Shown piece after piece: positions 18,373-20,129 of a stretch of DNA of 26,526 nt. The stretch's first letter is position 1, and the number at the start of each line of letters is the position of its first letter. The DNA is from Thermomicrobiaceae bacterium (GTDB taxonomy: Bacteria > Chloroflexota > Chloroflexia > Thermomicrobiales > Thermomicrobiaceae), in the NCBI GenBank assembly GCA_040904465.1, contig JBBDTL010000172.1, positions 1-26,526 of the forward strand. Direction: 5' to 3'. Position numbers and translations under genes: made by a program. The notes under the pieces were generated by a model. It was not told the DNA's origin and did no database searches. It was given only the letters and a program-made list of their open reading frames with translations.

Positions 18373-18510
18373 TCTATATCTCACAATTGGATTTCACTGC
18401 CAGCGCTGACGGCCAGAGAGAGTGAGCCGAACAACGCTTTCTGGTAGACGGCTACCTGAGCCTGCACTGAGTCCGTTTGGCTTCGCTGCTGTGAAATTCT
18501 CGGTTGGTGG

Positions 18511-19744
18511 TCAGGCAACGCTCCGTTGAATGGTGACGGTATTGCCGAGGTGTTGAAGGCGACGAACCAGTTGTTGCTCCTCTCGCTGGCGCTGTTTTTT
18601 CAGGGTCGAATGGAAGCAGCCTTGGATCGTAGAGTTCATCATTGGTGAGCAGGTGGTATGCGAGATGGAGCAGATGGTGCGCGATAGCAACGGCAGCGCG
18701 CTTGCGGCCACGGCGAGCAGCCAGTCTGGAATACCGGGCCGCAATCGGGGTGTCTTTGGTGCGCCCGGCAGCCACCGCGGCTTCGACCAGCATGGTCTTG
18801 AGCCAGGGGCTGCCTTTCCGGGTGCGACCACTGGACCGTTTGCCAGCACTCTCGTAACTGCCGGGACACAACCCGGCCCAGCTGGCCAAGTGTTTGGCCG
18901 TGGGGAAACGACGCATGTCCCAGCCGACTTCGGCCAGAAAAATCTCTGCCCCGATTTGGGCAATGCCGGGCACACTATCGAGGATCTCCAGCTGGCGGGA
19001 AAAAGGGTCCGTTCGTTCGGCAATCTCGCGGCTGACCTGGACGATCTGCTCATCCAGAAAATCAATATGGACCAGATGATGACTGACCATAAAACGCTGG
19101 TGTGGCCCAATCGTTCCCGTCAGGGCCTGGATGAGTTGCGGCGCTTTCTTGGCAAGTTGGCCCCGGGCAAGCGAAGCGATCGCCTCCAGATCGGTATTGC
19201 CGGCCGCCAGCTCCCGCAACATCGCCTGCGCCGACACCCCGGTGACCTGGCTGACGACCGAGGTCAGTTTGATGTTGCAGGATTCGAGCGTCTTTTGCAG
19301 TCGGTTGATCTCTCGGGTCCGATCCCGGACTAGGGCGCTGCGATAGCGGGTGAGATCGCGCAGTTCCCGCTGTGGCAGCGCCGGTACGAAACTCGGCCGC
19401 AGTAAGCCGTGGCGCAACAAATCAGCAATCCACTCACAATCCTTGACGTCACTCTTGCGTCCGGGAACGGCCTTGATGTGCTGGGCATTGACCAGCAGCA
19501 ACTCGAACGCCTCCTCCAGCAGATTCCAGACTGGTTTCCAGTACACGCCGGTGCTCTCCATGGCGACATGGGTGCAGCCTGCCTCCGCCAACCAGTCGTG
19601 CAAGCTCAGAATCTGGTCGGTCATTGTCCCGAATGTTCGAATCTCCTTCGTGGCGTGACCGGTGGCTTCCGGCGTAATGAGACACGCCGTCAGCGACATC
19701 CGGTGCACGTCGATTCCACAACAGCGCGCATGGACGATCTCCAT
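18511..19744 (-). pseudogene. IS110 DEDD recombinase/transposase with +1 frameshift near the C-terminus
   Basis: GIDVH, MESTG, KSDVKD, ESAGK motifs. The expected tail (QLVRRLQHLGNTVTIQRSVA*, stop 18511) lies in another frame after the T6 run at 18595-18600; as written the ORF reads through to 18452. Confidence 0.8.
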
Positions 19745-19750
19745 CACCAA

Positions 19751-19997
19751 ACTCCTTCACCTGGTGGCCATTAGGTCCTCCTGCCGACGGTGACGATCCG
19801 GCAGATGCAGAGTCTGCTGTGCGTGCTTCCGGTTCCGGAGCGACAATCGGTGGTGCCTCGCGACCGTCTGGGCCATACTCAGGGTCTGACTCGCAGCACC
19901 AGCGAAGCCCGGCCTCGTTCCGCGGCAGGATGGTGCGAGATCAGCGATTATCATGCCCCGGTGGCGGGCGCCAGCCCATGAATACTCAGGACAGGCT
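19751..19997 (-). ncRNA. Putative IS110 bridge RNA
   Basis: Non-coding end upstream of the recombinase with several hairpins; contains a 10-nt match to the flank (19900-19909) and a 9-nt match to the predicted donor junction (19813-19821). Confidence 0.72.
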
Positions 19998-20129
19998 CTG
20001 CCGAATGTGTCCGCGTCTACGATAGAAGCCGTTCTGAGACAGGCTCGAGACGGCCGCCACCACCCATTGGCAGAGCGATCCGGCAATCGCGTCGCGATAG
20101 ATGCCTCGATTGCCAGCTGTGTGACGGGT

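Follow-up and report, generated by a model that had tools for sequence, protein, structure and literature searches.

A bridge-RNA-type insertion sequence (IS) of the IS110 group has very probably recombined at the dinucleotide CT inside a 25-nt motif; in this genus, both GTAG-headed REP-like hairpins and other hairpin repeats carry this motif in their loops. Observed directly are the element's borders and core, the repeat family, the recurrence of independent insertions at one point, and the sequence identity between candidate guides and target. It is established that IS110 elements (IS621, ISPpu9 and ISPpu10) target REPs and that bridge RNAs underlie this (PMC11208160, PMC11208158); because REP targeting has long been known and bridge RNAs explain it, our main result is confirmatory. 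The initial annotation of this DNA had proposed a REP-targeting IS110, and our data support that proposal: the site belongs to a repeat family, the motif lies in hairpin loops, and other insertions are found at CT|CAG.

Borders of the IS110 element and the interrupted site

The window, i.e., the whole stretch of DNA that was analysed, is contig C172 in its entirety (26.5 kb); the parent MAG (G000) comprises 1.50 Mb in 253 contigs, with 71% completeness and 58% G+C. We compared G000 with five genomes of the same genus (G001-G005) and ran the motif search over 41 genomes; all six genus genomes are fragmented MAGs, which bears on the repeat copy counts. The interrupted site is flanked by ndk on the plus strand (17805-18278; Pfam NDK) and, convergent to it, an unnamed ORF on the minus strand (20130-20546). 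The features of the element and its flanks are as follows.

18488-19986, minus strand: IS110-family IS, 1499 bp including the right-hand CT core, with borders taken from C143 and L016
18452-19744, minus strand: transposase ORF as assembled, 430 aa, with ATG at 19744 and stop at 18452-18454
18595-18600, minus strand: T6/A6 homopolymer at which the frame is lost, located by comparison with homologue C-termini
19745-19986, minus strand: 242-nt non-coding segment at the left end, upstream of the transposase; candidate gene for a bridge RNA
19947-19986, plus strand: conserved 40-bp left-end terminus, (T)TATCATGCCCCGGTGGCGGGCGCCAGCCCATGAATACT, common to the miniature derivatives and other copies
18443-18487, plus strand: left half of the interrupted REP-like composite, matching contigs C245 and C143 of G000
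19987-20020, plus strand: right half of the interrupted REP-like composite, with the right target CAGGACAGGCTCT, then GCCGAATGTGTCCGC and a GTCTAC tail

The assignment to IS110 was borne out by Pfam and NCBIfam. The protein combines a DEDD RuvC-like domain and a Tnp domain (PF01548 at 1.2e-32 and PF02371 at 5.8e-22) and matches NF033542, 'IS110 family RNA-guided transposase', with 288 bits against a cut-off of 140. Its nearest relative among transposases of species-representative genomes, in a Gemmatimonadales MAG, is 61% identical. The assembled ORF overruns the IS end by 36 nt because of a frameshift; the conserved C-terminal tail (..LVRRLQHLGNTVTIQRSVA*) resumes in another frame and ends at the TGA at 18511-18513. 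Homologues are 405-445 aa long, mostly 405-415, and the majority end in ..RLExLGxxVxLEP..AA*. Once the frameshift is read through (protein stop at 18511), the right end of the IS measures 23 nt, and the left end is the 242-nt non-coding segment. The sole full IS copy assembled carries this frameshifted transposase; the copy may be dead, or the homopolymer may have been misassembled.

The borders at 18488 and 19986 and the CT core follow from two sequences, the paralogue in C143 and the mini-element L016, which has the same termini and junctions. A blastn search of the flanks against the rest of the genome returned a contiguous paralogue of both (C143 of G000, 5507-5444), reading GAGCCTGCACTGAGTCCGTTCGGCTCCGCT|CAGGACGGGCTCTGCCGAACGTGTCGACGTCTAC, or in wider context ...GGCTCCGCT|CAGGACGGGCTCTGCCGAACG... 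at the junction. L016, 149 bp long and located in the congener G005, begins GCTGTGAA... and ends ...CATGAATACT, the termini of the window IS, and divides TTCGGCTTCGCT|CAGGGCAGGCTCT as the window IS does; L113 is the uninterrupted twin of the L016 site. On the plus strand, the window IS runs from GCTGTGAAATTC... to ...CCCATGAATA-CT, terminal inverted repeats are absent, and the CT core is present at each junction (18486-18487 and 19985-19986). Taking out 18488-19986 restores the motif that is found intact in C143, L113 and at least 70 further copies, with the empty site reading ...TTTGGCTTCG-CT-CAGGACAGGCTCTGCCGAATG... between GGTAGACG and CGTCTAC.

Read in order, the left half of the site has GGTAGAC as its head, then GGCTAC and the inverted half-motif CTGAGCCTGCACTGAG; the left target is TCCGTTTGGCTTCG, and the core CT occupies 18486-18487. 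The flanks end in GGTAGACG (18444-18451) and CGTCTAC (20014-20020). The likeness of the flank ends GTAGACG and CGTCTAC to repeats near 6051-6058 and 7078-7085, pointed out in the initial annotation, is real, and those repeats have a GGTAGAC head at 6040-6058 and 7078-7096. The DNA fold of the empty site has -16.1 kcal/mol (z -2.2 against shuffles), with GTAGACG/CGTCTAC as the outer stem; a loop of 14 nt holds the left target half, and the 3' arm of the inner stem CTGAG/CTCAG starts with the CT core. The window site is a composite of two partial repeat units. An origin of the composite REPs (the window site and C143) in recombinase-mediated exchange at the core was considered, and this chimeric-REP idea was dropped because inversion between sites leaves the sites intact.

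The target motif belongs to a repeat family in hairpin loops

The IS interrupts the 25-nt motif TTCGGCTYCGCT|CAGNRCRGGCTCT, the consensus of which is TTCGGCTTCG-CT-CAGGGCAGGCTCT. With up to two mismatches allowed, this motif occurs in 5 copies in G000 and in 10, 22, 4, 28 and 2 copies in the five congeners, and a reversed-pattern control gave 0 in 41/41 genomes. Counted genome-wide, the site is therefore not unique, and the two findings that would have spoken against REP targeting, a unique site outside any repeat and other copies in non-REP DNA, were not encountered outright. At the intact G000 sites in C157, C229, C125 and C58, the arrangement is GGTAGAC-GTCGACACG-(TTCGGCTTCGCTCAGTGCAGGCTCTC)-CGTGTCGAC, with a 9-bp stem and a 26-nt loop. 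All 32 motif copies inspected have complementary arms on both sides, and these arms come from different families, among them GGTAGAC-type REPs and the hairpins CCCCTCTCC/GGGAGAGGGG and GTAGGGTCCCAC/GTGGGACC (loci L101-L130); a GGTAGAC head is present on many of the stems. The IS targets the long-loop motif rather than the GTAG head or the short form of the REP. A few motif copies were also seen beyond the genus, in G006, G020, G031 and G034, which represent other genera or families of the order.

On the ORF map, seven copies in G000 are placed either at contig ends or in the intervals that separate long ORFs; the map was used for extragenic position in place of a stop-to-stop test (32 copies), which is uninformative at 58% G+C. 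Of the suggestion that the element has many intergenic sites available, the intergenic part agrees with the G000 copies, which are placed between long ORFs; usable target sites in this MAG are few, with 5 motif copies. Since the motif is multi-copy and extragenic, it would offer pre-defined landing sites, presumably safe ones, for the IS and its miniature derivatives.

Two short repeats, one on the minus strand at 6040-6058 and one on the plus strand at 7078-7096, also have the GGTAGAC head; such repeats consist of GGTAGAC, an arm of 6-9 nt, a loop and a complementary arm, with compensatory arm changes. Copies of the short form (GGTAGNC, arm, CTCCGT, arm) number 7, 54, 30, 5, 24 and 2 in G000-G005, with 0-3 in controls, and are often arranged in alternating clusters. 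Raw GTAGAC 7-mer counts are not enriched (145 against about 200 expected), the enrichment being confined to the structured repeat. The congener G002 encodes a REP-associated tyrosine transposase (RAYT; L141, 1357-1854) that scores 98.4 bits on NF047646, for which the cut-off is 80. GGTAGAC..CTCCGT repeats flank this gene on either side (L141 1053-2040, contig C352 of G002), which is the classic RAYT arrangement. A RAYT was not found in G000, the completeness of which is 71%. With tens of copies per genome and a RAYT flanked by repeats in G002, the short repeat form behaves as a true REP.

Independent insertions and miniature derivatives share the same junction

The 40-bp left-end terminus of the window IS recurs at contig ends and within mini-elements, as listed below.

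L016, contig C496 of G005, 1501-1649: 149-bp mini-element, both flanks motif, CT|CAG
L009, contig C95 of G003, 1480-1539: 60-bp mini-element, both flanks motif, CT|CAG, within a GGTAGAC REP
L020, contig C197 of G005, 1120-1268: the same 149-bp element as L016, at the off-motif site GACTTGCACA-CT|CAGGAATG
L013, contig C50 of G000, 10432-10486: second left-end terminus in G000, at a contig end, with flank CT|CAGAATGACG

Two further copies in G005, L004 and L010, carry a full left end, 88% identical, followed by CAGGGCAGGCTCC, which is the right half of the motif; their left flank is unassembled. In all, four independent insertions in three genomes lie at the identical CT|CAG of the motif. The flanks of other copies agree with the proposed target in L016 and L009 on both sides and in L004 and L010 on the right half, and depart from it in L020 and C50, where the site is off-motif or a variant and has only CT|CAG in common with the motif. 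The L013 terminus diverges upstream of its last 48 bp, and its flank resembles a TTCGCTCAGAATGACG variant in G034 (L111). Within the window, a truncated left-end terminus of 30 bp remains at 26274-26303 (90% identical), directly next to GTAGG-type hairpin repeats at the contig end.

The miniature derivatives retain only the two IS termini, about 40 bp on the left and about 10-15 bp on the right, and lack both the transposase and the target-binding loop. From their sequences, they look like natural mini-donors mobilised in trans.

A candidate bridge RNA with guides to the motif

Guides were assigned by the rules and geometry of IS621 (PMC11208160, PMC11208158). The left end, read on the strand of the transposase, includes GGCC-G-GGCUUCGCU-(GGUGCUGCGAGUCAGACC)-CCCUGAG-UAU-GGCC (window 19909-19875), and three candidate guides can be placed in it.

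19901-19909, minus strand: candidate left target guide GGCUUCGCU, with the same sequence as the left flank on the plus strand (GGCTTCG) and the CT core
19875-19884, minus strand: candidate right target guide and handshake bases CCCUGAG-UAU, complementary to ATA-CT-CAGGG
19814-19821, minus strand: candidate donor guide CACAGCAG, equal to the sense-strand right IS end plus core and located after the clade-conserved AGCACGC

The small hairpin GGUGCUGCGAGUCAGACC follows directly after the candidate left target guide. In ATA-CT-CAGGG, ATA is the IS end, CT the core and CAGGG the right flank in the motif consensus; the occupied site has CAGGA, which is one mismatch. Together, the two candidate target guides match the genus consensus GGCTTCG-CT-CAGGG at 14/14 positions and the occupied site at 13/14. 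The 9-mer guide match arose in 227 of 200,000 dinucleotide shuffles, and a relaxed 7+6 pair within 40 nt in 33. As in a target-binding loop, matches of 9 nt and 6-7 nt to opposite strands are arranged around a hairpin and closed by GGCC/GGCC, and the congener copy L004 keeps this loop architecture with one guide base changed.

As a plausible targeting mechanism, an RNA would be transcribed from the 242-nt left end and would form an internal loop that is closed by the GGCC/GGCC stem and contains a small apical hairpin. The 5' side of this loop (GGCUUCGCU) would pair with one strand of the target, over the left target half and the core, and the 3' side (CCCUGAG) with the other strand, over the core and the right target half. 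Three further bases, UAU, would resemble the IS621 handshake bases in matching the IS end, and a predicted second loop with CACAGCAG would match the other IS end and the core.

The identity between donor guide and right end holds in 36/41 homologous elements (loci L021-L100); the clade has the right-end signature ATTTTC-N5-AG (sometimes AA or AC), and the same N5-AG follows AGCACGC in the left end, which makes the core NT on the opposite strand to the transposase. The second donor guide expected from IS621, CAUGAAUACU as its left donor guide, was not found, even with wobble, and the 5' side of the second loop is the clade-conserved GAYUGUYG-CU, which is not a variable guide and matches neither IS end. 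At the position of the left target guide, only 2/33 homologues show a match of at least 7 nt to their own flank; the clade-wide guide-target relation is therefore weak outside the window element. The minimum-free-energy fold of the left end (single sequence) is no better than shuffles (z 0.09) and is thus uninformative on structure. Under gathering and E-value thresholds, Rfam gave no family in the window, the IS or the eight motif loci; its sole return, a sub-threshold miRNA match, was rejected as spurious. A promoter scan of the linear copy found no sigma-70-like site.

In the window IS and most homologues, the core reads AG on the transposase-sense strand, which is not the polarity of IS621. 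The CT core puts the 'top' strand antisense to the transposase, and the arrangement therefore mirrors IS621; judged from sequence, the polarity of recombination appears to be mirrored as well.

Alternative explanations of the insertion

The initial annotation had described an IS of about 18491-20000 with a CTG core, inserted in the 6-nt loop of TTGGC-TTCGCT-GCCGA within a 66-bp REP, the intact form of which would read GGCTTCGCTGCCGAATG. TTTGGC and GCCGAA are indeed complementary, and CTG does occur near both junctions. However, C143 and every intact motif copy have CAGGRCAGGCTCT between TTTGGC and GCCGAA, the blastn and nhmmer paralogues all include the intervening CAG..GGCTCT, and L016, L004, L010 and L009 all end in ...GAATACT followed by CAG. 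A right border at 20000 is 14 nt off, and 19987-19999 (CAGGACAGGCTCT), removed there as part of the IS, is host DNA. The true empty site, given by C143 and L016, measures 79 nt instead of 66, with TTTGGC and GCCGAA 19 nt apart, and what the junctions share is CT. The CTG core and the 6-nt-loop hairpin are artefacts, because the right border was misplaced, and this description in its literal form is hardly credible.

With the borders corrected, it could still be argued that insertion into the repeat was incidental, with weak or no specificity, and that the left end owes its target-like strings to the capture of a piece of the repeat, so that they are no guides. This would suit L020 and C50, which have the same termini and are off-motif, the left-end fold, which is not significant, and the guide-flank match, which is weak in most homologues. 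Yet four independent insertions in three genomes fall on the exact CT|CAG of the motif, and even the off-motif L020 and C50 have CT|CAG. A captured fragment would be a contiguous copy of the repeat, whereas the strings are split at the core, match opposite strands and are placed around a hairpin, as in IS621; moreover, L004 keeps this architecture with a different guide base. We consider incidental insertion improbable. Less probable again, and very much so, is that targeting is real and determined mainly by the hairpin structure of the DNA or by contacts of the protein with REP DNA rather than by RNA. The motif is presented in a hairpin loop in all cases, and a target stem-loop is reported to add specificity in ISPpu10, for which it was recently proposed as a specificity gate (preprint 10.64898/2026.03.19.712850). 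However, the loop motif is constant while the stems are wholly different between hairpin families, L020 and C50 lie outside recognisable hairpins, and a gate of this kind would supplement RNA pairing, not substitute for it. Recombination by a bridge-RNA-type IS at CT inside the loop motif accordingly remains our preferred explanation.

Relation to known systems

IS621 of Escherichia coli, an IS110-group element with a bridge RNA (Durrant et al. 2024, PMC11208160; Hiraizumi et al. 2024, PMC11208158), resembles the window element in its DEDD and Tnp recombinase, the lack of terminal inverted repeats, the CT core at both junctions, the long non-coding left end upstream of the recombinase and the REP target. 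The two proteins are only distantly related, and the target differs, being a 25-nt loop motif in the window and the GTAG/CTAC head of the REP for IS621. In addition, the window core CT is antisense to the transposase, the target side read by the long guide joins the transposase-distal end, in mirror image to IS621, and an IS621-type left donor guide was not found in the window element. CT on the sense strand is a feature of IS621 and not part of the definition of the IS110 family.

ISPpu10 and ISPpu9 of Pseudomonas putida, REP-targeting members of the IS110 family in the account of Tobes and Pareja 2006 given in PMC11208160, likewise insert into one conserved, multi-copy intergenic repeat with a stem-loop-associated target. 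They differ in host lineage and repeat family, and in the present case the recognised bases lie in the large loop of several unrelated stem families. The miniature derivatives described above have a counterpart in the non-autonomous or modular derivatives reported for ISPpu9 (PMC12288879).

The repeats share with REP/BIME and RAYT systems the GTAG head, a short imperfect palindrome, compensatory arms, extragenic position, alternating clusters and a RAYT, here in G002. In contrast to REP/BIME, copy numbers are modest, tens per genome (in MAGs) and not hundreds, and the IS target is a long-loop variant with an extra 25-nt motif that occurs also in hairpins without a GTAG head.

The window element provides a natural example, in an uncultured lineage, of candidate guide bases that can be read directly against a multi-copy target. 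Recognised bases in a large loop common to different stems bear on the claim that target hairpins gate IS110 insertion, and the derivatives of 149 and 60 bp look like natural minimal donors. The apparently mirrored polarity in a widespread clade would be of interest for bridge-recombinase engineering, if not already described. A more far-reaching reading, which we hold to be rather unlikely, is that the 25-nt motif is an independent landing-pad module in the loops of at least three unrelated hairpin families, reaching other genera and families. It would be maintained or spread together with a mirror-polarity IS110 clade (core NT antisense) in which one IS end would be recognised in the absence of an IS621-type left donor guide, and which would mobilise guide-less mini-donors of 60-150 bp in trans.

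The ndk spacer in the genus

The initial annotation had suggested looking for the empty allele in a related strain; none from the same species was available among the genomes compared. The ndk spacer is syntenic in 4/6 congener loci; there, identity is 72-76% and the repeat is absent. In the window, ndk is followed by two terminator-like hairpins (18287-18372), with GTTTCAYGTGAAAC at their centres. The second of these, (C)CCGCGTTTCACGTGAAACGCGG(G), is conserved in 5/5 congeners despite the diverged surrounding spacer and may be a terminator or a protein-binding palindrome.
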